From positions 1 to 28,448 of the IMG/VR virus record IMGVR_UViG_3300038317_000064: a DNA stretch of 28,448 nt. One strand, written 5' to 3'. A model generated the notes under the pieces. It searched no databases, had not been told where the DNA came from, and saw only the letters and a program-made list of their open reading frames with translations. The position numbers were made by a program, and so were the translations under genes. Each line of letters begins with the position of its first letter. The stretch's first letter is position 1. The DNA comes from a virus (lineage: Duplodnaviria > Caudoviricetes). Below are positions 3,107 through 26,331 of the stretch, one piece after another.

Positions 3107-4386
3107 ACGTTATAGTCGCTTAGTGGTACTAAACCCTGCTGAATGAATATCTCGTTTGCATATGGTTCTTCGCTCTCGTCAGATCCCTGCATTACTCTTA
3201 CCTCGTTGATCGAATGTGTTTTTAGAAACGCTTCTACCTGCGTGTCTGAAATCCTTAGTTCTTCATAAGAGGAAAGGTCGTAGTCGATTATATATGTTTT
3301 GTTGTCTCTATTCGAAAAAGGTTCTACCAGCCATTTGTTCAGCTTGTCCTCCTCCAATGAAAGGTAAGGCAGCACAACATCCATAACAAGTCTCAATCTT
3401 CCCTCTCTTGCGTTCTGGTAGGTAGGATTAGGATCGAACAAGACCGCAGGAACGTTCCACAGGTCGCACAATTTAACCCCTGCGTGCTCTAATCCCTTTA
3501 CGATGTTTAGTGCGTCTGGTGACAGCCCTATGTGAGTGTATTGAAGTGGCATTCCAGAAACGACAATCTTGTTCTTGTTGTCCGCTCCGTGTATCTTCGT
3601 TTCTACCGTTGTTTGTGTGCTCTCTACCTGATCAGGTGTCAACCATAAATTTGGATCTGCATGGTTTGGTGAAATTAGTCCCTTTGCCCCCTCGTTCTCT
3701 ACAGACTTAATCCAGCTTTGAATTGCGGAATCGTCAAGCTGAAGATATTTAAGCCCGGCTAAAAGAGGGCTCATTCCCCTTAGTTGTGTTCCCGAAGCGT
3801 CGAATACGGGGTTTGGCATCTTCAAATGAAAAACATCACCTGCCGGGATCTCCCTCGTAAGTCCGTTAAACAGATTGAGCTTCCACGCTACCAGCCCCTC
3901 CGAGCTCACCACTTGTGTCATTAAATGAGCAGGAACTACGTGCAAACTTAACGCACAATCGTCATCCCCTGCCTCCCTGTAAATGAATGTTTCGCCCTGA
4001 ACGAAATAAAATATCCTCGCAAGAGTGATGAACTCCCTCCATGTCTGTAACGTGTTCGGGTTTTTGAGTAGTTTTACAAGATCGTTATCCTCCGGGGCGT
4101 ACTTTAATTCCTTATGCACGTAAAGCCTATGTTTGGCTACCGATATGTCGCTGTCCTTTCTCGATTTTGACTTAACTCCTTTTGAATCGATATAAACGTA
4201 TGGTGTTGATGCCGCACACTTGTCCGTAATCTTCTTGATGATTGAATATATCTCCCCGTTAGACGTGTACCCCTTTGAAATGTAGTCCTCGGCGTTGTAG
4301 TTGTACAATACAACAGGTGAATTGCCTATAAATGTGGAGTACAGGAACGACTTCGATACTTTATTTTTTCTTCTGAATAATCTCAT
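3103..4386 (-). CDS. Phage portal protein (HK97 family)
   Basis: 427 aa; LLKNPN..QT..EF, G..FIY, DVFHLK, RGMSPL and SINEVR motifs; follows TerL. Confidence 0.93.
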   Translation of the reverse strand: MRLFRRKNKVSKSFLYSTFIGNSPVVLYNYNAEDYISKGYTSNGEIYSIIKKITDKCAASTPYVYIDSKGVKSKSRKDSDISVAKHRLYVHKELKYAPEDNDLVKLLKNPNTLQTWREFITLARIFYFVQGETFIYREAGDDDCALSLHVVPAHLMTQVVSSEGLVAWKLNLFNGLTREIPAGDVFHLKMPNPVFDASGTQLRGMSPLLAGLKYLQLDDSAIQSWIKSVENEGAKGLISPNHADPNLWLTPDQVESTQTTVETKIHGADNKNKIVVSGMPLQYTHIGLSPDALNIVKGLEHAGVKLCDLWNVPAVLFDPNPTYQNAREGRLRLVMDVVLPYLSLEEDKLNKWLVEPFSNRDNKTYIIDYDLSSYEELRISDTQVEAFLKTHSINEVRVMQGSDESEEPYANEIFIQQGLVPLSDYNV

Positions 4387-6050
4387 CTTATTGCAAATGA
4401 AAATTTGTGTTTCGGATTTAATGAATAGCGCAAAGCATCTATACCGTGATTATACATGTCGATAGGCTTGTTCGTCGGGTTGCCGTCCTTATCCAAGGCC
4501 CAACTGTACGACCTTAGCTCTTTTATCAGGTTGGTGCTTCTCTGTGTTACGTAAATAGGTCTGCTCTGAAGTCTGTCAATACCCGTCCTGACGCTGTCAG
4601 CACCCTTTACGGCGGGTTTTATGTTAAATCCAGCATTGTGTATCTCCTGAATACTTTTAGGCTCTGCGCTGTCTGCAATGATCTCGTCGTAGCTTTTCCT
4701 TATTCCTAATGATTCAAGTCTATTGATGATATGAGAGTTTAGCATACCTGTTTGATATATTAGCTCGTCTACGTAGTACGCTTCATCTGTTTCGATTGTC
4801 GCTACTAAAGAGGTGGGGTCGCAATTATGAACTAAAATCCCGTTAGCAAAGTATTCATGAGCATCTTCAATTTCTAAATCGTAAACGTCGCAATAAAAAC
4901 TACGAACGTTTTTTACGTTTATTAATCCCTGATAATTTATGTGCGTGTTCATTTGAACAGCATTTTGGCTTAAGGTATTTATTCCCTTGAAAAACCTCTC
5001 CACAATACTGGCTAAAATAATAGTTTGCATGCTTTCCTGATGGGTATCGGTTGTACTTTTCTCCTTTAAACTCGATTGTACACACAATACGTCCCTCTCT
5101 GTTAATTCTCCGTACTTCTTCCATTTTCCGTTAGCATAAAAATGATGTTCATGTGTTGCACAAATATTTGTGCTCAAAGCATCTGTTATTAATTTTTTCT
5201 CAATTACTTTTTTATATCCGTTATAGATGGTTCTTTTTACGAGCCTATATCCTTTACGTGTTAAAACTAAATCACCCTTTTTTACGTCTTTGATTTGAAT
5301 TAATCCTTTAGATGTAGTAATCAATGTTTCTCCACTAAAACAGCTAAACCCGAAATCTAACCCGTATATCTTATCACCTTCAGGCATCCTATCCACCTGC
5401 ATCCAGTTTGAAAAAATGATCCCCTCGGTTACGCCGTATTCGCAGTCAATGTGAATCCGCCTGAAGTTTTCGTCCCTGGATGCTCTTTTGGCGATCCTGT
5501 TTTTTTCGGTCTCAGGAAGAAAGGGATTATCTAAGTAGTTAGATTTAATGGTTAAAACTTTATCGTAGTTTGCTGCCCAGTCCTCAACCCAGAATTGAGC
5601 GGTCGGGTTGAAGTCGGCTATCACGTTTTCCGTCCGTCTCGCAAGCTCATCCCAAACATCTTTTTTCAATGAGTTGATCTCGTTTCCGTATAACCAGTCT
5701 CTACGTGCTCCAAGTGCCTTGTCGATACGGTCAGCGGAAAAGAACTCGATTATCGTTCCGGTTGGTGAAGTCCATGTCGATTTTGATATGTTCCAGTTCT
5801 CTTTCCCCCAAAGATTTAAAGGTTTGCATATTCCGGAAAGTATTCTTATAGCTCCTATTTCCAGGTGCGGCCTACTCTCCGAAACAACGGTAATGATCAG
5901 ATCGGGATGGGTTACCGCTACTGAAAAAAGATATAACATGTTGTCATATGTCTTTCCCGATCCCGTTCCTCCACGGTGGATGCAAATCTTAAAACCGTCG
6001 TCAAAGGCCTGACGGGTCTTATTGTATATCGTCCCCGTCTTTATTTCCAT
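4383..6050 (-). CDS. terL: Terminase large subunit (PBSX-like) interrupted by an intein
   Basis: Walker A GGTGSGKT, NE, DFNP, NYLDNPFL, nuclease GLDFG, ADSAEPKSI, NHGIDALRY. Predicted 382 aa after removing the 173-aa intein. Confidence 0.95.
   Translation of the reverse strand: MEIKTGTIYNKTRQAFDDGFKICIHRGGTGSGKTYDNMLYLFSVAVTHPDLIITVVSESRPHLEIGAIRILSGICKPLNLWGKENWNISKSTWTSPTGTIIEFFSADRIDKALGARRDWLYGNEINSLKKDVWDELARRTENVIADFNPTAQFWVEDWAANYDKVLTIKSNYLDNPFLPETEKNRIAKRASRDENFRRIHIDCEYGVTEGIIFSNWMQVDRMPEGDKIYGLDFGFSCFSGETLITTSKGLIQIKDVKKGDLVLTRKGYRLVKRTIYNGYKKVIEKKLITDALSTNICATHEHHFYANGKWKKYGELTERDVLCVQSSLKEKSTTDTHQESMQTIILASIVERFFKGINTLSQNAVQMNTHINYQGLINVKNVRSFYCDVYDLEIEDAHEYFANGILVHNCDPTSLVATIETDEAYYVDELIYQTGMLNSHIINRLESLGIRKSYDEIIADSAEPKSIQEIHNAGFNIKPAVKGADSVRTGIDRLQSRPIYVTQRSTNLIKELRSYSWALDKDGNPTNKPIDMYNHGIDALRYSLNPKHKFSFAIR
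4824..5342 (-). mobile_element. Intein (173 aa, no in-frame homing endonuclease) in the TerL nuclease domain
   Basis: Starts CFSGETLITT (block A), has ATHEH (block B TxxH) and DVYDLEIEDAHEYFANGILVHN (blocks F/G); +1 residue is Cys. Junction GLDFGFS|CDPT. Confidence 0.95.
4900..5124 (-). CDS. Alternate-frame ORF nested in the intein; probable remnant of an out-of-frame homing endonuclease
   Basis: 74 aa, same strand as TerL but a different frame, lying between intein blocks B and F. Contains EFKGEKYNRYP..YY, a degenerate Zn-finger (SQYCGEVF...KCCSNEH) and a basic tail. Confidence 0.55.
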   Translation of the reverse strand: MEEVRRINREGRIVCTIEFKGEKYNRYPSGKHANYYFSQYCGEVFQGNKYLKPKCCSNEHAHKLSGINKRKKRS

Positions 6051-6573: not shown

Positions 6574-7275
6574 CTATAATTTTTTAATCAAATCCCAAAG
6601 CTGTTTTCCCCTTAGGGATTTGTTCCGTTTAAATTCCTTGTTTATTGTCTTGTATTTTTCAATTATCTCTTTGTGATAACATAAATGAAAGTCGTACAGA
6701 CCTGGGTTTTCTTCAATTGTGAATTGCTCTATGTTGCTCGAGCTTCTTAAATTCGCCGAACCGTGAATTACTATCTTCTTTTTCCCGGCTGTTTCAAAAA
6801 GTACTATTTTTGTATGCGATCCTGCTGAGGCCAATTGGAACCTGTCGTCTATGTCTAATTTGTCGTATATGTATGGTATCAGTGATTTTCTTTCATGTGC
6901 GAAAAAGTAATCCGATACTATCATGTTAAGGTTATCTACAAACTTTCCATCCATCAAATTAACAAGGCTATCTACGTTATTTTGATCTAACGAAAGCGTT
7001 GATATTGTCATTTCTGTACACTTTGCGTTGTTGTGAGTTATAAACGCCTCTATAAAATCACCAAAAATAAAATTACCTGCAACGATAGCATCATACCTTA
7101 TCCCTGTGTCAAGCTTGATGTCTCTTGCAAGCTTTTGAGCGTTTGAGTATTTTATTTTATGCGCTGGCAAGTCTCTTGCTATCTTTGATTTTTTATAACG
7201 GTTTTTAAATCCGTTATCCATCATCGGTATATCTAAATCAAAATCGTTTATTTCAATGTTAAAATCAAACTCCAT
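6574..7275 (-). CDS. Phospholipase D-superfamily (single HKD-like motif) protein, putative nuclease
   Basis: HTKIVLFET...IHGSANL..S.NIE matches HxK(x4)D/E...GSxN...N.E. Confidence 0.75.
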   Translation of the reverse strand: MEFDFNIEINDFDLDIPMMDNGFKNRYKKSKIARDLPAHKIKYSNAQKLARDIKLDTGIRYDAIVAGNFIFGDFIEAFITHNNAKCTEMTISTLSLDQNNVDSLVNLMDGKFVDNLNMIVSDYFFAHERKSLIPYIYDKLDIDDRFQLASAGSHTKIVLFETAGKKKIVIHGSANLRSSSNIEQFTIEENPGLYDFHLCYHKEIIEKYKTINKEFKRNKSLRGKQLWDLIKKL

Positions 7276-7372
7276 ACCTCACCCTTTAATGGATTACTCC
7301 TATATACTTCACAAATTTTTGTTTACAATTTCTGTAACCGTTTATTAAGGCTGTTTTCAGACGTTCGGATAC

Positions 7373-7400
7373 AAAAAAACCGACACTACTTGTGTCGGCT
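7373..7400 (-). terminator. Rho-independent terminator separating middle genes from late genes
   Basis: Minus strand GCCGACAC-AAGTA-GTGTCGGT with the closing T starting a run of 7 T; overlaps the TAG stop of the upstream gene. Confidence 0.85.
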
Positions 7401-7673
7401 TCCGAATAATATCTTGTACTTTTGCTTTTCCGTCTTTATAAAACGGTGTCTCATTCGCCTGTGCTCATCCATAAATTCTTTTATAATTACATCGTCAATA
7501 GCTGTCTTCAGATTATCCCTCCTTATTATGTACTCGAATGTCTCAAGCATTATATCTTCACAGTTATACCCGTTATGAATTTTTCCGTTATCTCTCAATA
7601 GCTTTTTGCGCAGATAGCCCCAGTTGGAAGCCAAAACATTCATTATTTTTTTATGTGGCTTCCTGGCTATCAT
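7386..7673 (-). CDS. Sigma70/ECF region-2-like protein, candidate late activator (probable start 7673; track start 7718)
   Basis: NWGYLRKKL...NCEDIMLETFEYII resembles the ECF region-2 xAEDxxQETF motif. Last gene before the terminator and packaging operon. Confidence 0.5.
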   Translation of the reverse strand: MIARKPHKKIMNVLASNWGYLRKKLLRDNGKIHNGYNCEDIMLETFEYIIRRDNLKTAIDDVIIKEFMDEHRRMRHRFIKTEKQKYKILFGSRHK

Positions 7674-7857
7674 TTTCAAGTTTACTGATTTTATCGGATA
7701 ATAAAAATCCTTCCTCATCCTGTAATTTGTTAAGTGAATGTTTAATTAATACCCTTATAACAACCGATTGACGTACCCTCATCATTTCGGCAAGCTCCCT
7801 TATCAGCATGTCTGTTTCTGAATCAACTCTACAACCTTTAACGTGCTCTTTCTTCAT
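7651..7857 (-). CDS. Ribbon-helix-helix-like DNA-binding protein
   Basis: VKGCRVDSETDMLIRELAEMMRVRQSVVIRVLI fits the CopG/Arc strand-helix-helix pattern. Confidence 0.65.
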   Translation of the reverse strand: MKKEHVKGCRVDSETDMLIRELAEMMRVRQSVVIRVLIKHSLNKLQDEEGFLLSDKISKLENDSQEAT

Positions 7858-7864
7858 TTTGTTA

Positions 7865-8131
7865 CTAATTGCTTACTTTTTTTCGTCTCCGCTCGGTGTT
7901 GTGATTTCTTTTTGCTACCTTTTCATTTATCATTATATCCAACATCTCATCCGTGCTAATCTCAATTTCACCGATTATCATCCCTATTACCTTGCAAGTC
8001 CTGTCAAATCTGCCAGATAAGATACCAATCATAAGTTCCAAATCCGCTTCGTCCCGACTTTCCGCTTCTATATAGTCCTCGTCTTTCAGGAATCTAACTC
8101 CGTCAATTGTGCGTTCAACTGCGAATGTCAT
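7865..8131 (-). CDS. Hypothetical protein
   Basis: 88 aa ORF tiling with neighbours. Confidence 0.65.
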   Translation of the reverse strand: MTFAVERTIDGVRFLKDEDYIEAESRDEADLELMIGILSGRFDRTCKVIGMIIGEIEISTDEMLDIMINEKVAKRNHNTERRRKKVSN

Positions 8132-8280
8132 TTTATCAGGGCTTCAAGTTTATTATCAACCCACGTATTATCCATAACATTTCTACCAGTCCACAGCCAT
8201 CCGAACAGAATCCCTATACCCCACATAACGAGCAATACTGCTACGCAAATTAAAATACCTAATCTTTTTATTACTTTCAT
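8128..8280 (-). CDS. Small membrane protein (probable start 8280)
   Basis: One hydrophobic segment LGILICVAVLLVMWGIGILFGWLW; ATGA overlap with the upstream ORF. Confidence 0.6.
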   Translation of the reverse strand: MKVIKRLGILICVAVLLVMWGIGILFGWLWTGRNVMDNTWVDNKLEALIK

Positions 8281-8456
8281 ACCTTTTTTATTGAATCCCG
8301 TTCTTTTCTCCATGCGCTACAAACCATTTTTACGTTATGAATAACCGCAATGTCATCTTTCGCCCATCGTTCAATAGTTACCAAGAACTCTTCGAGCAAA
8401 TCTCTTTCCTCAGCTACCTGCTCTACTCCCCACTTTTTCGCCTTGTGTTGTATCAT
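8277..8456 (-). CDS. Hypothetical 59-aa protein (below ORF-track cutoff)
   Basis: MIQHKAKKWGVEQVAEERDLLEEFLVTIERWAKDDIAVIHNVKMVCSAWRKERDSIKKV*; TGA overlaps the next ATG. Confidence 0.6.
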   Translation of the reverse strand: MIQHKAKKWGVEQVAEERDLLEEFLVTIERWAKDDIAVIHNVKMVCSAWRKERDSIKKV

Positions 8457-8468
8457 AATAAATCATTT

Positions 8469-8660
8469 TTATTTTCCACGACCATCACCGTCGATATATA
8501 TCAAACTAACCTTTTCCCCGTCACCGTGAATAGTAAAGGTAGGGTATGAGCCGTCATCATTTCTTTTGTTTATCTTGTCAGTCGGCCATATCTGATAACC
8601 GTACTCCCAGCAAAGACTGTCAACTTTTTCTATAAACTCATCCATCTTTTTGCTAATCAT
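8469..8660 (-). CDS. Hypothetical protein
   Basis: 63 aa ORF overlapping the upstream stop. Confidence 0.6.
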   Translation of the reverse strand: MISKKMDEFIEKVDSLCWEYGYQIWPTDKINKRNDDGSYPTFTIHGDGEKVSLIYIDGDGRGK

Positions 8661-8841
8661 ATCTCTTAGTGTTAATATTATGCCTGATCAGCACAGGGTC
8701 TGTTTTTAACGCTACCTCCATAATGGCGATTGCTACATCTATAGCCTCCCCGATTGTTTTCGGGTCTTGAGGATGGGAATACCCTCCACGTCTCCAGTTG
8801 TTGTGCTTTTTCAGCACGCTTATTGCCTGTTTTACTGTCAT
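8653..8841 (-). CDS. Hypothetical phage protein
   Basis: 62 aa; AI.VL..HN.WRRG...P..IGEAID.AI is a pattern I recognise from small phage proteins (from memory). Confidence 0.7.
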   Translation of the reverse strand: MTVKQAISVLKKHNNWRRGGYSHPQDPKTIGEAIDVAIAIMEVALKTDPVLIRHNINTKRYD

Positions 8842-8851
8842 GACTGTTATA

Positions 8852-8883
8852 TTTTAAACATTCGTAAATGCCACGTTATGTGC
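8852..8883 (+). repeat. attC-like half site / junction repeat, copy 1
   Basis: TTTTAAACATTCGTAAATGCCAC-GTTATGTGC. Near-identical to 11582-11608 and similar to 12501-12526. Core GTTATGTG (8875-8882) is the exact complement of CACATAAC (9201-9208). Confidence 0.7.
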
Positions 8884-8887
8884 CATT

Positions 8888-9172
8888 TTAAAAAGACCCT
8901 GCACTATCTTCAAACCCTCTTTGGAAATAGTTTACAAGCATAAAAATATCTTTTTCCGACACATCTTTAAAGCAGGGGATTACAGGGTAGTCGTGACCAC
9001 TATGTCCAGAATTTACAGAAACATAGCTTTTAATCACCTGAATCCCACACAAAGTATCTTCATCCCATTCCCAATCATTAAACCTTTCCGCAATAATTAG
9101 TAAATAATCTGGGGTATAATTCATTTTTCTCAAACCTGAAGCAACCGCTTCAATAAATTCTCTTTTTGTCAT
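8888..9172 (-). CDS. Hypothetical protein carried in an attC-bounded cassette (start 9172 or 9205)
   Basis: ORF lies between the complementary cores at 8875 and 9201. Confidence 0.7.
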   Translation of the reverse strand: MTKREFIEAVASGLRKMNYTPDYLLIIAERFNDWEWDEDTLCGIQVIKSYVSVNSGHSGHDYPVIPCFKDVSEKDIFMLVNYFQRGFEDSAGSF

Positions 9173-9173
9173 T

Positions 9174-9269
9174 TTAGTTAAAATTTGTGAAGAAAAACGA
9201 CACATAACAGCACCTAACCAAAATTGGCGGTTCAGTGGTTATATGGGCGTTTCTGCTTCGATTATACAT
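9174..9269 (-). CDS. Putative 31-aa leader peptide encoded across the attC-like site
   Basis: MYNRSRNAHITTEPPILVRCCYVSFFFTNFN*; A-rich upstream context; TAA ends 1 nt before ATG 9172. Confidence 0.45.
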   Translation of the reverse strand: MYNRSRNAHITTEPPILVRCCYVSFFFTNFN

Positions 9270-9334
9270 TTTTTTTAAGTTTTAAAGTTTGTCCTTCGTA
9301 ATCGCCAACTTCGGTTAGCTGCAAAACGTTATCC
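9201..9334 (+). mobile_element. Complete attC-like recombination site (about 134 bp)
   Basis: CACATAAC-A-GCACCTAACCAAAATTGGCG...CGCCAACTTCGGTTAGCTGC-AAAAC-GTTATCC: imperfect inverted arms, AAC/GTT cores and a T-rich loop. Confidence 0.75.
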
Positions 9335-9520
9335 GTTCGGGTGAATTTTACAACCATTAGGATACCATTTGTCACTCCCAGTAAATCTTATGCACTTACA
9401 CTCGTCATCCGTCAACTCATCATCAACAAGATTCGATAACAGTTCTTTTGCTTCTGACGGCTCCATTTTTTTATTGTAAAGCAATTCTAAAATTTGGTCT
9501 ATGCTCATTTTATCGCTCAT
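9329..9520 (-). CDS. Hypothetical protein (probable start 9520)
   Basis: C-terminal CKC...C.IH; its TAA stop is the TTA of the attC GTTA core. Confidence 0.6.
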   Translation of the reverse strand: MSDKMSIDQILELLYNKKMEPSEAKELLSNLVDDELTDDECKCIRFTGSDKWYPNGCKIHPNG

Positions 9521-9794
9521 ATCCGTGATTTTTTGGGTTATCGTCATATAACCCGATTTGTTCATCGCCCCGCATCGTGTTGATCAGTGCTTGCTTTTGT
9601 TTGTATTTATCTTTTTTTAGTTCGTTTTTAATAAAAAATCCACAATCCGCCTCGTTAAAATCAGCATAGCTGTATGTATCCCAAGGCAGGCAATCCAGAT
9701 ACCTCTTACATTTCAGTTTCTTCTCGCACCGCTCATTTGCGCAGCGGGATATGTCGTTGGGGAGAAAACTACTTGTTTCTATAGATTGCGCCAT
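9510..9794 (-). CDS. Hypothetical Cys-motif protein
   Basis: DISRC....C.....C.RY motif plus a C-terminal KQALI..M..DE.IGLY segment. Confidence 0.65.
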   Translation of the reverse strand: MAQSIETSSFLPNDISRCANERCEKKLKCKRYLDCLPWDTYSYADFNEADCGFFIKNELKKDKYKQKQALINTMRGDEQIGLYDDNPKNHGYER

Positions 9795-9796
9795 AG

Positions 9797-10978
9797 TCAG
9801 TTTGCTTTAAAATTATAAATAGGTGTTATTATTTCAACAATTTCAACTGTATCGAAAATAGCGCCAATAATTTCATCCATAGATTTATATGCTTGCGGAG
9901 CCTCATCAATAGTAGATTCATTTACCGAAGTTGAGAATACATTGCCCATCGATTCAGAATATTCATCCATTGATATCATTTCTTTTGCCTTTGAACGGCT
10001 CATTAACCGGCCGGCACCGTGCGGAGCGGAATAGTTCCAGTCCTCATTCCCTTTTCCCCTACAAATCAATGATCCATCACGCATATTGATAGGGATAAGC
10101 AATATTTCCCCGGCTTCGGCGCTTACAGCACCCTTCCGAAGGATCATGTTCCGGATATCGATATAATTGTGAATAGTTTCGAACTGATCAGCAACATTCA
10201 ATCCCGTTTCTTTGAGTATGACTTCAGCCATCATTTTACGGTTCAGGGAGGCGAAATTTTGAACGATCTTCATATCGTTGATATAATCCTCAAAATCCTG
10301 CTTTTCGACGAAAGCAAGGTCTTTATTTGCTTTCGGCTTTTGAAGCTTCTTCAATTCTGTATCGATATCTTTTTCCCGGCCTTGCCGCTTCAGGTACTCA
10401 ATGAGTTTGCATTTGATAGTGCTCATCTCATTGACATTTTTCCATGCCAGATCCTGATAATACTTGCAGACATTTACGCCTAAATTCCTGCTCCCGGAGT
10501 GGATGACAAGGTATAAATTCCCGTTATCATCCCGGTCAACTTCTATGAAGTGGTTCCCGCCCCCAAGTGTACCAATCGACAACATTGCACGCTCCAGATC
10601 CGCATGTTTCGCACATCGCAATTCGGAGAAATCAAATTTCGCAATAGATCTATCCCTGATAGAAAATCCGGAAGGGACATGACCCCTGATAATCTGGTCG
10701 AGTTTATGCAAGTCGATATCTTTTTCTTTCAGTTTAGTTGTAAGCATCCCGCAACCGATATCAACTCCGACCAAATTTGGGGTAACCTTATCTGTTATTG
10801 TCATAGTAGTGCCAACCGTACAACCCTTACCCGCATGAGCATCCGGCATAATTCGTATTTTTGAATTCAAATACGGCTCGAAATTTGCCAGCGATTTTAT
10901 TTGATCGTAAGCCTCATATTCAAATGTTTCTGCATAAATCTTTACCTCATTTCCAATGCTGTTCTTAATCTTTTTCAT
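9797..10978 (-). CDS. rtcB: RtcB-family RNA ligase
   Basis: MPDAHAG.G..VG, GVDIGCG, GTLGGGNHF.E, HSGSR, HN, RKGA, SAPHGAGR and DEAP.AYK motifs are all present. Confidence 0.97.
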   Translation of the reverse strand: MKKIKNSIGNEVKIYAETFEYEAYDQIKSLANFEPYLNSKIRIMPDAHAGKGCTVGTTMTITDKVTPNLVGVDIGCGMLTTKLKEKDIDLHKLDQIIRGHVPSGFSIRDRSIAKFDFSELRCAKHADLERAMLSIGTLGGGNHFIEVDRDDNGNLYLVIHSGSRNLGVNVCKYYQDLAWKNVNEMSTIKCKLIEYLKRQGREKDIDTELKKLQKPKANKDLAFVEKQDFEDYINDMKIVQNFASLNRKMMAEVILKETGLNVADQFETIHNYIDIRNMILRKGAVSAEAGEILLIPINMRDGSLICRGKGNEDWNYSAPHGAGRLMSRSKAKEMISMDEYSESMGNVFSTSVNESTIDEAPQAYKSMDEIIGAIFDTVEIVEIITPIYNFKAN

Positions 10979-10992
10979 AACTTCAAAATTGT

Positions 10993-11187
10993 TTACAAAT
11001 GATCTTCTTCGATTTCACTCCATTTCTCCCCATCAGTCGTGTAAACGCCTTTTGCAAGGTCATATACAACCATCCCGACCTCTGCGTTGAAATGATTTTC
11101 TGCGTCAAATCGGTCAGAAAGAAATGGCGGTTGGATGTTTGTTGTTATTAAGTATCTCATAGCTTCAATAGTTTTTCGTATTTCCAT
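10993..11187 (-). CDS. Hypothetical protein
   Basis: 64 aa ORF tiling with neighbours. Confidence 0.65.
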   Translation of the reverse strand: MEIRKTIEAMRYLITTNIQPPFLSDRFDAENHFNAEVGMVVYDLAKGVYTTDGEKWSEIEEDHL

Positions 11188-11202
11188 ATTTTATAAACTG
11201 TT

Positions 11203-11418
11203 TCATTCCAAACACTCTTTTACACGTTTTTCAAAATCACGCTGCGCTGCAGATGGGTACTCTAATGGCATCCAGTGTGTAATTTCATTCCAATCTGCAA
11301 ACCTTTCATCTTCATCTGACCAAACAGTTGAATAAATTTGTTTGCTTTCAATATCTCGGTAAACTAAAACAAGTTGTCCGATTTCAGGTTTTTGTTTGTT
11401 GTATTCAATCCAATCCAT
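11203..11418 (-). CDS. DUF551-like phage protein
   Basis: WI....KPE.GQ.VLV...ITHWMPL. Confidence 0.8.
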   Translation of the reverse strand: MDWIEYNKQKPEIGQLVLVYRDIESKQIYSTVWSDEDERFADWNEITHWMPLEYPSAAQRDFEKRVKECLE

Positions 11419-11426
11419 CGTTCAAA

Positions 11427-11573
11427 TCATTCCTCCAATATTTTCACGCCAGCCTCAACCATTAACCGCAAGTACTCACGAAAAGAATATATGTCGTCAT
11501 ACCCTTTTTTCAGGTAGTGCTCCATCAGTTCGGCTTCGGTGGCTTCAATTATTTTGTTACGTTTTATTTTCAT
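11427..11573 (-). CDS. Hypothetical 48-aa protein (below ORF-track cutoff)
   Basis: MKIKRNKIIEATEAELMEHYLKKGYDDIYSFREYLRLMVEAGVKILEE*. Confidence 0.6.
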   Translation of the reverse strand: MKIKRNKIIEATEAELMEHYLKKGYDDIYSFREYLRLMVEAGVKILEE

Positions 11574-11581
11574 ATCCTTTG

Positions 11582-11611
11582 TTTTAAACATTCGTAAATA
11601 CCGTGTTAACT
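11582..11611 (+). repeat. attC-like half site / junction repeat, copy 2
   Basis: TTTTAAACATTCGTAAATACCGT-GTTAACT; the TTA in the core is the stop of ORF 11606. Confidence 0.65.
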
Positions 11612-11899
11612 GGAGAACCCATCACAATTACCACCTTCGTCATAAACATACCTACTCTGCAATATAATCCTTTCTGCTTCTTCTCTATTATATTGCTCTT
11701 GAATATGCTCCATTTCAATGTCATACCACGTGTTCACTATCTCCAGCATGGCTTCTGCTCCGGCGAGAAAGTCATTATATGATCCAATTTGTTCTTCAGA
11801 CGCATAAGTATCAATATTGACATCTATAGGTATTAATGCATACTCTCTTGCTTTCTGCTCTATTTGTTCTTTTATCGCTTCTGTCGGTTCTATTTTCAT
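11606..11899 (-). CDS. Hypothetical protein (probable start 11899)
   Basis: IEQKAREYA...FLAGAE pattern typical of small phage proteins. Confidence 0.65.
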   Translation of the reverse strand: MKIEPTEAIKEQIEQKAREYALIPIDVNIDTYASEEQIGSYNDFLAGAEAMLEIVNTWYDIEMEHIQEQYNREEAERIILQSRYVYDEGGNCDGFSS

Positions 11900-11900
11900 A

Positions 11901-12269
11901 TCAATACTTTTTGCCGTGCATCCTTTCACGGGTTGCGTTATACTTCATTTTCAACTCGATGTGCTTTTCGATATCGATACCTTTTGCTCCGCATAGGTCG
12001 AGGATTCGGATAATTGTGTCGGCAAGTTCATCCTCGAACGTGTCTTTAATCGAATTTTCAAAAGACCATTTAAAATCAATGAAATTTTCTTTGTCTTTTT
12101 CAATTAATTCCAAGTCGGCATACAACACATTCCTATCAGCTTCCATCGCCTCCGCCAATTCTGATACGCAAAGCATCAATAGTGTTCCGGTCTCTCTTTT
12201 GTTATCCCAAAATCCTTTGTTGATTGCATATTCGTGAATTTCATCACGTAGTTTGTTTAATGTTTTCAT
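11901..12269 (-). CDS. MazG-like NTP pyrophosphohydrolase
   Basis: L...SELAEAMEA.R...EDELAD..IRILD and KM.YN..R...HGKKY. Confidence 0.85.
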   Translation of the reverse strand: MKTLNKLRDEIHEYAINKGFWDNKRETGTLLMLCVSELAEAMEADRNVLYADLELIEKDKENFIDFKWSFENSIKDTFEDELADTIIRILDLCGAKGIDIEKHIELKMKYNATRERMHGKKY

Positions 12270-12278
12270 ACCCTTTGT

Positions 12279-12476
12279 TTAAATAAAATGAAAATGTTCT
12301 GCTTTTTCAATATAACCTATACCACCGTTTGACAATTTCACTGTGTGCCTAACCCCGTAGGGTGTATTTTTTGCATTCCAGCCGGTTGCAATTATTTCAC
12401 CCGTCAACCCCTGATAATTGCCGGAATGAAATTCAACCATGTCTCCAATTTCGATTCGTGATTTGTTTGTTTTCAT
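12279..12476 (-). CDS. Small KOW/SH3-like protein
   Basis: IGDMVEF.SG.Y.G..GEI is KOW-like. Confidence 0.55.
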   Translation of the reverse strand: MKTNKSRIEIGDMVEFHSGNYQGLTGEIIATGWNAKNTPYGVRHTVKLSNGGIGYIEKAEHFHFI

Positions 12477-12500
12477 TTCCTTAGTTTAATTATTATCCAT

Positions 12501-12532
12501 TTCAAGTATTCGCAAACGCCACGTTATAGGTA
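12501..12532 (+). repeat. attC-like half site / junction repeat, copy 3
   Basis: TTCAAGTATTCGCAAACGCCAC-GTTATAGGTA; core 12523-12532 is the exact complement of TACCTATAAC (12799-12808). Confidence 0.7.
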
Positions 12533-12871
12533 AGCATATCGACCGTAATTAGCCGACATTTTAAACTCCCTATCTGTTTGAATTGGGTTTAAGTCCATAT
12601 CAATTTCGTAGCAATGCAAAAAGAACGGAATATCGTTCACAAAATATGTTCGTTGTTTAATATCGGTTCTATCTTCACATCTACAATTTGATTTAATAAA
12701 GTTTTCAAGTTCAATTCTATTCTCAAACTCAAATCCTTTTCTTTTAAGTCCTTCAATCATATAATCTTCTAACTGCTTATTGAGTTGGGAAGAAAGCCTA
12801 CCTATAACACTCGCTGTAAGTAATGGCGGGTCTTGTGGCTCATAATCAAGTTTTCGGCGCTCTATTTTCAT
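12524..12871 (-). CDS. Hypothetical cassette protein whose N-terminus is encoded by an attC arm
   Basis: Stop lies in the GTTA core at 12523; residues DPPLLTASVIGR read through the attC arm at 12799-12830. Confidence 0.7.
   Translation of the reverse strand: MKIERRKLDYEPQDPPLLTASVIGRLSSQLNKQLEDYMIEGLKRKGFEFENRIELENFIKSNCRCEDRTDIKQRTYFVNDIPFFLHCYEIDMDLNPIQTDREFKMSANYGRYAYL
12799..12870 (+). mobile_element. Truncated attC-like site (left arm and loop only)
   Basis: TACCTATAAC-ACTCGCTGTAAGTAATGGCGGG resembles the left arms at 9201 and 13590. No right arm was found. Confidence 0.6.
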
Positions 12872-13104
12872 TTCTTCAGTTTCAAAATTGATTGTTTGTC
12901 AATTTCACCCGTTAAATAATCATTTTTATACTCACAAGCTGCATTTTCTGCCGCATCCTCCAATGCCTGATTATAAGCTTCTTTTTGAGCTTGTTCAATA
13001 TAATTTTTTATACCATTTTTAAACTGAATAAAACTAATTTCATCCCAATCAAACTTACTCCACAATTTCACTACATCATCTGAATATTCTTCTGCTGTTT
13101 TCAT
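12868..13104 (-). CDS. Hypothetical protein (MKTAEE paralog A)
   Basis: 78 aa; shares MKTAEE and IEQAQKExY with the neighbouring gene. Confidence 0.7.
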   Translation of the reverse strand: MKTAEEYSDDVVKLWSKFDWDEISFIQFKNGIKNYIEQAQKEAYNQALEDAAENAACEYKNDYLTGEIDKQSILKLKK

Positions 13105-13120
13105 ATTTTTAGTTTCAGAA

Positions 13121-13381
13121 TTAAAAGGACTTGTGTTCTTCTATCCATTCTTGCGGAGTAACATATTTGTTTGATAGGCAATACTCCATGTAGTACTGCA
13201 TATTTAAAAACATCTCCCTCTTTGCCTCATCGTAAACTTCTTTTTGGGCCTGTTCAATTGCATTAACACAAGCCTCCCACTCTGGAACTTGTTTCATTTC
13301 ATCTATAGTTACATAACTATCCTTTGTCCTTGATAACATAGAAGTTAAATGACTTTCTAATATTTCTTCTGCTGTTTTCAT
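13121..13381 (-). CDS. Hypothetical protein (MKTAEE paralog B)
   Basis: 86 aa; shares MKTAEE and IEQAQKExY with the neighbouring gene. Confidence 0.7.
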   Translation of the reverse strand: MKTAEEILESHLTSMLSRTKDSYVTIDEMKQVPEWEACVNAIEQAQKEVYDEAKREMFLNMQYYMEYCLSNKYVTPQEWIEEHKSF

Positions 13382-13413
13382 TTCTTTGTTTTAATTATTG
13401 CGTATATATTTTG

Positions 13414-13641
13414 TTAGTAGCCATTTTGAAGAACAGCCACAGCCTTACGCAAATCTTCTATCATTGGCTTTAGTGTTTCAATTTCATTATCTGTGTATTG
13501 ATTTGGATTGTGAGCCATCATCAGATTTGCTTCCTTTAATTGTAATTCAAGCGTCAGTAGCCTTGATGTTAGCATTAAAAAAGAAAAACGGCCACCAATA
13601 TCAGGTAGCTGCAATGGCTTGCTGTGTGCTTCATTTAACAT
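13414..13641 (-). CDS. Hypothetical cassette protein starting inside an attC-like loop
   Basis: Stop lies in the GTTA core at 13413; ATG is inside the site 13590-13727; KPLQLPDIGGR is encoded by the attC arm. Confidence 0.65.
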   Translation of the reverse strand: MLNEAHSKPLQLPDIGGRFSFLMLTSRLLTLELQLKEANLMMAHNPNQYTDNEIETLKPMIEDLRKAVAVLQNGY

Positions 13642-13727
13642 GTTATTGGTATTTAAAAAAATTTATAATTCTATTTAAGTTTATCGGTTATGGTCGCCGC
13701 TCGCAGCTACCTGTATCCGTTATAGGT
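13590..13727 (+). mobile_element. Complete attC-like site with a degenerate left core
   Basis: GGCCACCAAT-AT-CAGGTAGCTGC...GCAGCTACCTG-TATCC-GTTATAGGT: an 11-bp perfect inverted repeat. The left core matches the complement of GTTAGTAGCC (13413) at 7/10, and all mismatches are transitions. Confidence 0.7.
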
Positions 13728-13729
13728 AA

Positions 13730-13954
13730 TTAAATTACTACCTTCAGCTCCTTTACCCAGCTTTTGCCTTCGAGATACATCCCCAAATTGAAAAAACGAT
13801 TTTGCTTTTTATCAATGATAATTTCCGTTCCATCATTTGGGGTTACTTTTACAATTTGAGCCTTTACGGGTTCGTTTTTTAATGTGTCACCAGTCACAAT
13901 AAGCGTATCTCCTTGCTTAATGTCGGTAATCGTTTTTACTTCCTTCAATTCCAT
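13730..13954 (-). CDS. Hypothetical protein
   Basis: 74 aa ORF ending just past the attC core. Confidence 0.65.
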   Translation of the reverse strand: MELKEVKTITDIKQGDTLIVTGDTLKNEPVKAQIVKVTPNDGTEIIIDKKQNRFFNLGMYLEGKSWVKELKVVI

Positions 13955-13997
13955 AATTCGTTTTTCATAATAATTTACTGTGTTTATTTGTCATCCG

Positions 13998-25416: not shown

Positions 25417-25493
25417 AATATTGCTATTAATAACATCACTAAACTCCATACAAGGATTACCCGTAAAATGATGGTCATTGCTTTTGTTGTCAT
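25413..25493 (-). CDS. 26-aa hydrophobic micro-protein
   Basis: MTTKAMTIILRVILVWSLVMLLIAIL*; starts within the repeated leader. Confidence 0.55.
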   Translation of the reverse strand: MTTKAMTIILRVILVWSLVMLLIAIL

Positions 25494-25528
25494 AATATTA
25501 AGAACGATTCGCCTGTACATCGTGAGGT
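25483..25528 (-). repeat. 46-bp leader repeat, copy A
   Basis: 44/46 identical to 26094-26139. Confidence 0.9.
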
Positions 25529-25548
25529 ATTAAAAAATTAAACAATTA

Positions 25549-25845
25549 TCATATGCTGTTAATAAATTCCATCACCTCTGAAATTGTCAACGTTCTATAT
25601 TGCAGTCTTTCAATAGCCCTTGCGCAAACAAACTGCCTGGTTGAATATCTGCAATCAGTCATTACATCAAGGTTTCCGTCAGAACAGCAAATTGTCATTA
25701 TGTTGTCTACATAGTCACAATCTTTTGTTGTTTTGCGCAAATATATAGCCTCGCGATACCATTCCTCGTAAACATATCGAGGCACATGTTTTCCAATTTT
25801 TTCAAATATTACCGTCATCAATGAGTTTAATTTCCCGTTATTCAT
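25549..25845 (-). CDS. Hypothetical early protein
   Basis: 98 aa ORF tiling with neighbours. Confidence 0.6.
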   Translation of the reverse strand: MNNGKLNSLMTVIFEKIGKHVPRYVYEEWYREAIYLRKTTKDCDYVDNIMTICCSDGNLDVMTDCRYSTRQFVCARAIERLQYRTLTISEVMEFINSI

Positions 25846-26093: not shown

Positions 26094-26139
26094 TTTGTTG
26101 TCATAATATTAAGAACGATTAGCCTATACATCGTGAGGT
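26094..26139 (-). repeat. 46-bp leader repeat, copy B
   Basis: 44/46 identical to 25483-25528; leads into the 8-aa ORF MTTKKTTL* (26078-26104). Confidence 0.9.
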
Positions 26140-26148
26140 TTTTAAAAT

Positions 26149-26331
26149 TTAAATTAATATTAAATCAATATATGAAGTCTGCCCCCATGAGTTGCTATGT
26201 ACCCACGCTACCTTGTATCTCACGTTATCCTCGTCGTACAAGTACCTATGATCATCGTCAAAGGTATAGCCATGATCTTTCAAGATTTCATCTACCGTTT
26301 TCTGTGTCAAAACTTCAATTCTTGTCTTCAT
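26149..26331 (-). CDS. Hypothetical protein, first gene after the early promoter
   Basis: 60 aa; A-rich start context. Confidence 0.6.
   Translation of the reverse strand: MKTRIEVLTQKTVDEILKDHGYTFDDDHRYLYDEDNVRYKVAWVHSNSWGQTSYIDLILI

Follow-up and report, generated by a model that had tools for sequence, protein, structure and literature searches.

The 28.4-kb window analysed here (28,448 nucleotides) is a whole virus contig of the class Caudoviricetes (IMG/VR record IMGVR_UViG_3300038317_000064), estimated by CheckV as 48% complete, and it contains an accessory region in which small genes are arranged as integron-like gene cassettes. The window encodes head, terminase, DnaB, Sak4-like, NinB, NinG/Rap, RtcB and lysis proteins, and every gene in the region studied lies on the minus strand. 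The phage likely infects Bacteroidota, since the hairpin family described below is distributed in Bacteroidota genomes. An original prediction, made from the letters alone, had described the region as a decaying array of attC-like cassettes with three pairs of GTT and AAC cores and no integrase in view. On recheck, all six cores were found in place, and no tyrosine recombinase is encoded anywhere in the 28.4-kb contig.

The first cassette is preceded by a short motif at 8852-8874 (plus strand; array-head motif A, formerly taken for a right half), which is a receptor by position, scores -37.6 bits as a host right arm and is followed by the crossover point G|TT at 8875|8876. The left end of cassette 1 (8875-8889, plus strand) comprises the GTT core and a 15-nt terminal repeat, and the core GTTATGTG at 8875 is paired with CACATAAC at 9201. 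The enclosed gene (8888-9172, minus strand; 94 aa, 36 homologous clusters) is inverted relative to its own hairpin, which is intact and forms the right end of the cassette (9194-9330, plus strand; AAC at 9206-9208, 119 nt, GTT at 9328-9330, right arm longer by 4 nt) and shares at most 76-77% identity with host sites. A further copy of CACATAAC at 8222 was rejected as a site, as it lies within a gene and is absent from the scoring left arms. The next gene (9329-9520, minus strand) has no hairpin of its own, and its stop codon TAA falls within the crossover core. Array-head motif B (11582-11607, plus strand) is apparently unoccupied: the sequence past GTT fails to score like a cassette end (core part, -0.2 bits), it has no partner left arm, and the gene at 11606-11929 has its stop codon in this core.

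Cassette 2 (12523-12871, plus strand) follows the degenerate array-head motif C (12500-12522, plus strand), with the crossover at 12523. The motifs at 8852, 11582 and 12500 form one repeat family (D4), as predicted apart from a shift of the third start from 12501. The left end of cassette 2, GTTATAGGTA at 12523, is matched by the partner core TACCTATAAC at 12799 (12799-12808), and only the left arm of the hairpin is present. Its gene (12524-12871, minus strand; 115 aa) is predicted to start in the hairpin loop, to be read across the left arm and to stop at the TAA of the crossover core. Cassette 3 is preceded at 13397-13412 (plus strand) by a degenerate, host-type attI-like site, one base short, which had been missed originally; scored with a matrix of 13 host attI-like sites, it is the top one among the 1115 GTT sites in the window (10.4 bits with one deletion allowed, -22.9 without). 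The cassette itself (13413-13721, plus strand) runs from GTTAGTAGCC at 13413 to a decayed partner core, GGCCACCAAT at 13590 (13590-13599; AAC changed to AAT), and a right arm longer by 3 nt with GTT at 13719. The gene of this cassette (13414-13641, minus strand; 75 aa, 65 homologous clusters) has a hairpin-encoded N-terminal leader and a C-terminal NGY derived from the left end, and its product carries GGRF in place of the SSRF conserved in homologs. A probable, eroded fourth cassette (13719-13954, minus strand) has a left end at 13719 (11.3 bits, core part) and a gene at 13730-13954, with neither its own hairpin nor a partner left arm and with no relatives among the loci compared. The crossover cores at 12523 and 13719 open with the same 10 bases, as does the one past the cassette 2 hairpin in the related locus L145. 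An additional crossover at 13997 was ruled out, as relatives have ATT there.

Arm matrices trained on 64 host cassettes were run over both strands of the whole window, with 100 shuffled windows as the control. The top three left arms of the window are those at 9206 (30.9 bits), 12806 (23.5) and 13597 (16.6), and the best scores of the shuffled windows have a median of 10.6, a 95th percentile of 18.0 and a maximum of 23.2. Thus, the left arms at 9206 and 12806 exceed all 100 shuffles, and the one at 13597, lying below the 95th percentile, is by itself within chance. The right arm at 9328 scores 28.7 bits (shuffle maximum 16.9) and the one at 13719 scores 9.9, within the shuffle range. It should be noted that the scores at 9206 and 9328 are partly circular, as some of the training cassettes came from BLAST with the 9195-9340 hairpin.

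Each cassette is composed of a TT core, a gene, a complementary core, a hairpin and a G. The R'' (RYYYAAC) and R' (GTTRRRY) boxes of attC are present, and the first bases of a cassette are complementary to its own R''. Among adjacent sites not selected by their cores, complementarity of at least 8/9 was observed in 38 of 43 host and 77 of 107 viral cases (shuffled means, 4.7 and 9.4). Complementarity of the ends extends over ~15 nt, interrupted at position 11 by a fixed A/C mismatch, and the right arm next to the core is longer by 3 or 4 nt throughout the site family. The host array L052, with eight sites and 7/7 perfect core pairs, has the same anatomy as the phage arrays. Folding of both strands, suggested by the original prediction, gave a modest result for the linear hairpins, which favour the bottom strand (z -2.7 and -1.8, versus -0.5 and -1.0 for the top strand), and the linear fold of the left half (12799-12870) is not significant. 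For a circular junction built from a cassette's own two ends, the bottom strand is predicted to form an outer stem of 15-16 bp with one 4-nt bulge, and this strand is the more stable one in 225 of 232 computed junctions. The three core transitions of cassette 3 become G.T pairs in this fold, and stem mismatches generally lean to bottom-strand G.T (204 versus 111, or 204 versus 16 when position +6 is left out). All four pair types are represented at most stem positions, and position +7 is almost always T:A. An Rfam scan of the window gave no relevant match, and BLAST of the hairpin against GenBank phages gave weak, chance-level matches only.

As had been predicted, the units in which genes move are cassettes with breakpoints at G|TT. 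The related locus L003 is 99% identical to the window over 7270-9336 and has another cassette after the GTT at 9328, directly after which L278 diverges as well; the replacement cassette of L003 sits behind a different hairpin in L005. The window, L021 and L016 each have a different hairpin ahead of the gene at 9329, joined to it at the same G|TT, and L016 has the same upstream gene and motif as at 8852, followed past GTT by a different cassette. Cassette 2 is found behind four other upstream sites (L144, L145, L146 and L148). In a set of 251 cassettes from 103 viral loci, 19 pairs share a common body and have unlike upstream DNA; their identity is ~1.0 from G on, 0.53 at -1 and 0.11 at -2, which places the crossover between G and TT of R', as in attC, on genomic rather than biochemical grounds. 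The original prediction had named breakpoints away from the GTT cores as the result that would speak against it; those of L003, L016, L145/L146, the gene at 9329 and the 19 pairs fall at the cores. Near-identical pairs almost always retain the hairpin to the right of the gene, and therefore the hairpin travels with the gene on its left. Whole-cassette differences at G|TT were also seen among the near-identical phage records L190, L199 and L227.

The hairpin family was matched in 47 of 301 sampled Bacteroidota genomes, and the pattern of one hairpin subtype matched ~200 viral stretches. Host arrays are headed by a protein with SAM_4 and Phage_integrase domains, relatives of which occur in 116 of the 301 genomes; by comparison, the accessible part of the IntegronFinder 2.0 report names one complete integron in Bacteroidetes proper. 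When 40 loci were selected on the enzyme alone, a first cassette linked to it was found in 14. The majority of the linked enzymes face the array, with an attI-like site ~100 nt behind the enzyme. Phages possess a short version of the enzyme, and 15 of the best 38 viral matches head arrays, in which 39 of 40 cassette genes are on the bottom strand; where a phage encodes the enzyme, its gene is found no more than 3 kb away from the array on the head side, in many cases ~50-100 nt from the head. Thus, in hosts and in other phages, a tyrosine recombinase with its catalytic residues stands beside a head site and an array, as IntI does; in the window there is none. All 12 aligned host enzymes keep the catalytic residues and lack ~43 aa of IntI1, and five enzymes scored 134-212 bits with TIGR02249 (cut-off 265; IntI1 control 506). 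On both counts the enzyme falls outside IntI, for which the additional domain around patch III is called defining in the available text of a preprint (10.1101/2022.02.06.479319).

Phage and host cassettes differ in the orientation of their genes. Viral cassette genes are on the bottom strand in 145 of 155 cases (median 301 nt), whereas host cassette genes are on the top strand in 64 of 76 (median 835 nt), and base skew is concordant in both sets. The arrangement usual for attC, with the gene on the top strand upstream of the site, is thus found in host arrays but not in phages. Left-end position 11 is A in 98% of host and 99% of phage cassettes, so that the polarity of the ends is alike, and core-to-core flipping of host cassettes was ruled out as the source of the inverted ones.

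We consider it likely that the region consists of three short, partly decayed cassette arrays with G|TT boundaries, which were moved by an integron-like tyrosine recombinase of Bacteroidota that lacks the IntI domain and probably came in trans from the host or from another phage. In such a system, the bottom strand of a circular cassette would form a long stem whose 4-nt bulge, next to AAC, would take the place of extrahelical bases as the recognition mark. Cleavage of the folded strand at AA|C would be followed by its joining to an array-head site or to another hairpin. An occasional crossover at the other core would swap hairpins, and hence N-terminal leaders, between genes. Genes would become fixed by ordinary recombination near start codons, through loss of the untranslated right arm or replacement of the hairpin by a copy of the head motif, either of which would leave half sites.

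Several points weigh against this reading. No linked cassette was detectable in 26 of the 40 enzyme loci, and many members of the enzyme family may do something else. Among the 15 of 37 joints that were listed, all from contigs, none is that of an excised circle, and most lie near gene starts and not at GTT, so other recombination also shapes the region. The head motifs score only -0.7 to 2.2 bits with the host attI matrix. The orientation counts include a few mirror double counts and allowed a longer reach to bottom-strand open reading frames, and the viral loci were chosen by one hairpin subtype and are not independent. Finally, a contig that is 48% complete leaves room for an enzyme in cis. 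The same system with its recombinase encoded in the unsequenced half of this phage's genome would suit the short enzymes carried by other phages; it is nevertheless unlikely, as those enzymes lie within 3 kb of the array head, where the window has none, and no strong match was found in ten contigs related to this phage (one weak match, E 6.8e-7). The one complete genome among the ten, that of a 43-kb phage carrying cassette 2, has no match to the enzyme, so the recombinase in trans proposed originally is plausible; its IntI-like label does not fit the linked enzyme, which is without the IntI domain.

The three motifs first regarded as right halves of eroded attC sites proved to be something else: as host right arms their scores are -33 to -45 bits, and a pairing left arm is absent from all 25 head-motif matches. 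The motif is present in viral contigs and not in bacterial arrays. A host attI or attC arm was rejected as its identity, as the matrices refuse both and a genome-wide search returned five chance-like matches in unrelated taxa and contexts. Because it stands at array heads and accepts varied cassettes (L016), it appears to be a phage array-head motif, attI-like by position. By eye, it could form a mini-hairpin with a stem of 3-4 bp. Around cassettes in L282, L283, L285, L286 and L288, a second phage head motif is repeated; it is unrelated to the first, has a GC-rich stem-loop and stands before G|TT.

Erosion of sites, also part of the original prediction, is evident in the window. The hairpin of cassette 2 survives as a left half (12799-12871), truncated in the loop at the start codon of the gene, and complete copies of cassette 2 exist in L145 and L146 behind differing upstream hairpins; cassette 3 has lost its AAC. 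In L281, the gene of cassette 1 (gene 1) has a variant of the head motif on both sides instead of a hairpin, duplicated with ~100 nt of flank, and in L282, L283, L285 and L286 it is likewise flanked by another motif. The copies of the latter group form a clade within the hairpin-bearing copies (97/94) in a tree that has a midpoint root only and one long branch, and that does not resolve the order of naked and cassette forms. The count of gene 1 contexts excludes 2 of 17 metagenome loci, which are partial matches at contig edges. Naked forms of genes 1 and 2 occur in L289, L290 and L147. The motif-flanked copies of gene 1, together with the many joints near gene starts, suggest that ordinary recombination fixes genes and spreads head motifs. 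Such recombination could be extended to the whole region, with the hairpins as relics from host arrays and genes now moving by homologous or microhomology recombination between shared motifs used as linkers, which would agree with the joints at gene starts in related populations, the flank duplicated in L281, and a contig that encodes Sak4-like, NinB and NinG/Rap proteins and no enzyme. We hold this to be improbable, as identity is lost no more than one or two bases from GTT where the upstream sequences are unrelated, identical cassette bodies are found at different positions, and 15 phage loci have the enzyme at the array head; recombination of this type probably explains the erosion, but not the cassette boundaries.

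Canonical attC sites have two or three extrahelical bases on the R''-L'' arm, according to the accessible text of PMC2727003. Within the first 18 nt, an extra base on the left arm was found in 5 of 214 hairpins, compared with 36 hairpins having one on the opposite arm and 173 having none. Lacking these bases and having a 4-nt bulge next to the crossover, the sites are not the canonical attC that they had been taken for. A canonical attC control in L150 had no detected site and hence gave no comparison. The layout of the window, with two full hairpins, one half and no enzyme, fits a cluster of attC sites lacking an integron integrase (CALIN); its sites fail the extrahelical-base test. The available part of Qi et al. 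2023 (PMC9892861) describes 17 phage CALINs, that is, sites without an integrase, some of them in virulent phages such as Polaribacter phage P12002L, which resembles the window in having cassette sites without an integrase and has DNA methyltransferase cargo. P12002L contains several sites of the present family, with inverted genes. Its P12002L_attC1 is such a site, with a right arm longer by 3 nt, a 9/9 core partner 775 nt upstream and bottom-strand genes, and its attC2, which recombined, is by our reading the DNA before a cassette's G|TT in the opposite direction. As far as that part of the paper goes, phage sites are treated as ordinary attC for IntI, and no inversion rule, bulge anatomy or cognate enzyme is reported. 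It is very improbable that the cassettes of the window are canonical attC cassettes, that a true IntI acting in trans moves them and that the half sites are what remains of eroded attC arms. The GTT/AAC cores, bottom-strand folding and G|TT crossover are all integron-like, and of six phage sites IntI1 recombined five, including one from a Bacteroidota phage (the same part of PMC9892861). Against this reading, 209 of 214 hairpins have no left-arm extrahelical base, the arrays adjoin an enzyme without the IntI domain, the half sites do not score as right arms, and P12002L_attC1, the one complete site of the family tried there, failed with IntI1.

The hairpins also appear to contribute coding sequence. 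In 36 of 77 viral cassettes, an ATG inside the hairpin opens a frame that runs through the left arm and is a predicted start, and in 18 of 77 the crossover core supplies the stop codon TAA. In the window, cassettes 2 and 3 have a hairpin start of this kind. The 34 homologs of the cassette 3 protein carry many unlike leaders on one conserved body, and gene 1 was found with three different hairpins, so hairpins have apparently been exchanged at the other core over time. The accessible text of PMC2727003 reports that loss of extrahelical bases moves part of IntI1 recombination to R'' on the top strand, and a shift of this kind might offer a mechanism for the exchange. The viral cassette cargo appears phage-like: PHROG scans, which covered 72 of 142 viral and 59 of 64 host cassette proteins, matched 25 of the former (12 methyltransferases) and 14 of the latter (one methyltransferase). 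Naked and cassette forms of the same gene coexist. We tentatively suggest that Bacteroidota phages may make their own cassettes, in that a domain-less recombinase would read single-stranded hairpins with the 4-nt bulge and capture phage genes between the 15-nt ends, opposite to host genes, with the hairpin providing a swappable start codon and leader.

How gene cassettes first arise is still an open problem. With ends and leaders taken from the site, phage genes found in both naked and cassette form make the origin of cassettes testable. If phages do make them, the creation of cassettes could be observed along this route, in an integron-like system that spans the phylum and is missed by current tools. 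If the enzyme works as proposed, single-strand cassette recombination would need neither the IntI domain nor extrahelical bases, both of which are held to be central. The system shuffles phage accessory genes, and one host array (L069) leads with a resistance gene. The window itself is a decayed, enzyme-less example, and it adds the conserved head motif and snapshots of cassette fixation.

We found no description of this system in a literature search that reached few subscription papers. Classical integrons, as presented in the accessible text of PMC2727003, are alike in having a tyrosine recombinase beside a head site, tandem cassettes, a G|TT crossover, complementary cores and a bottom-strand folding bias. 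In contrast to them, the R''-L'' arm here is without extrahelical bases, a 1x4 or 1x5 loop places extra bases on the R' arm, terminal repeats of ~15 nt carry the fixed A/C mismatch at position 11, the enzyme is without the IntI additional domain, and phage genes are inverted and often hairpin-started. The system is therefore integron-like in its working and outside attC and IntI in membership. The sections of Smyshlyaev et al. 2021 (PMC8138268) available to us describe, among the simple tyrosine recombinases, an integron-like subgroup with members that do not fully conserve the IntI insertion; there, the insertion is called essential for integron function, and members without it are given no cassette function. 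The SAM_4 and Phage_integrase enzymes studied here resemble this subgroup by description, a likeness that falls short of placing them within it.

The same recombinase family is found on Chryseobacterium plasmids and on many Acinetobacter plasmids (plasmid hits H27-H51), and an 'XerD' has been reported beside tetX and catB11 in Chryseobacterium. In L069, lnu(H), scoring above the NCBIfam cut-off, occupies the first cassette past the attI-like site, and a later cassette encodes a Sul-like dihydropteroate synthase, below the Sul cut-offs. An insertion-sequence-like element was recognized by eye within a cassette hairpin of L005 (~3750-5100, oriented), and L280 has a short remnant resembling it in the 5' part of gene 1. 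The RtcB gene of the window (9797-10978) is missing from related populations, with joints from near 9750 to 10990 or 11201, away from the GTT sites. Outside the cassette region, the terminase large subunit (4383-6050) contains an intein (Intein_splicing, above cut-off). Finally, a region of small genes has a pair of 72-nt repeats 611 nt apart (25483-25554 and 26094-26165) with 86% identity, which may represent a repeated promoter or a linker between modules.

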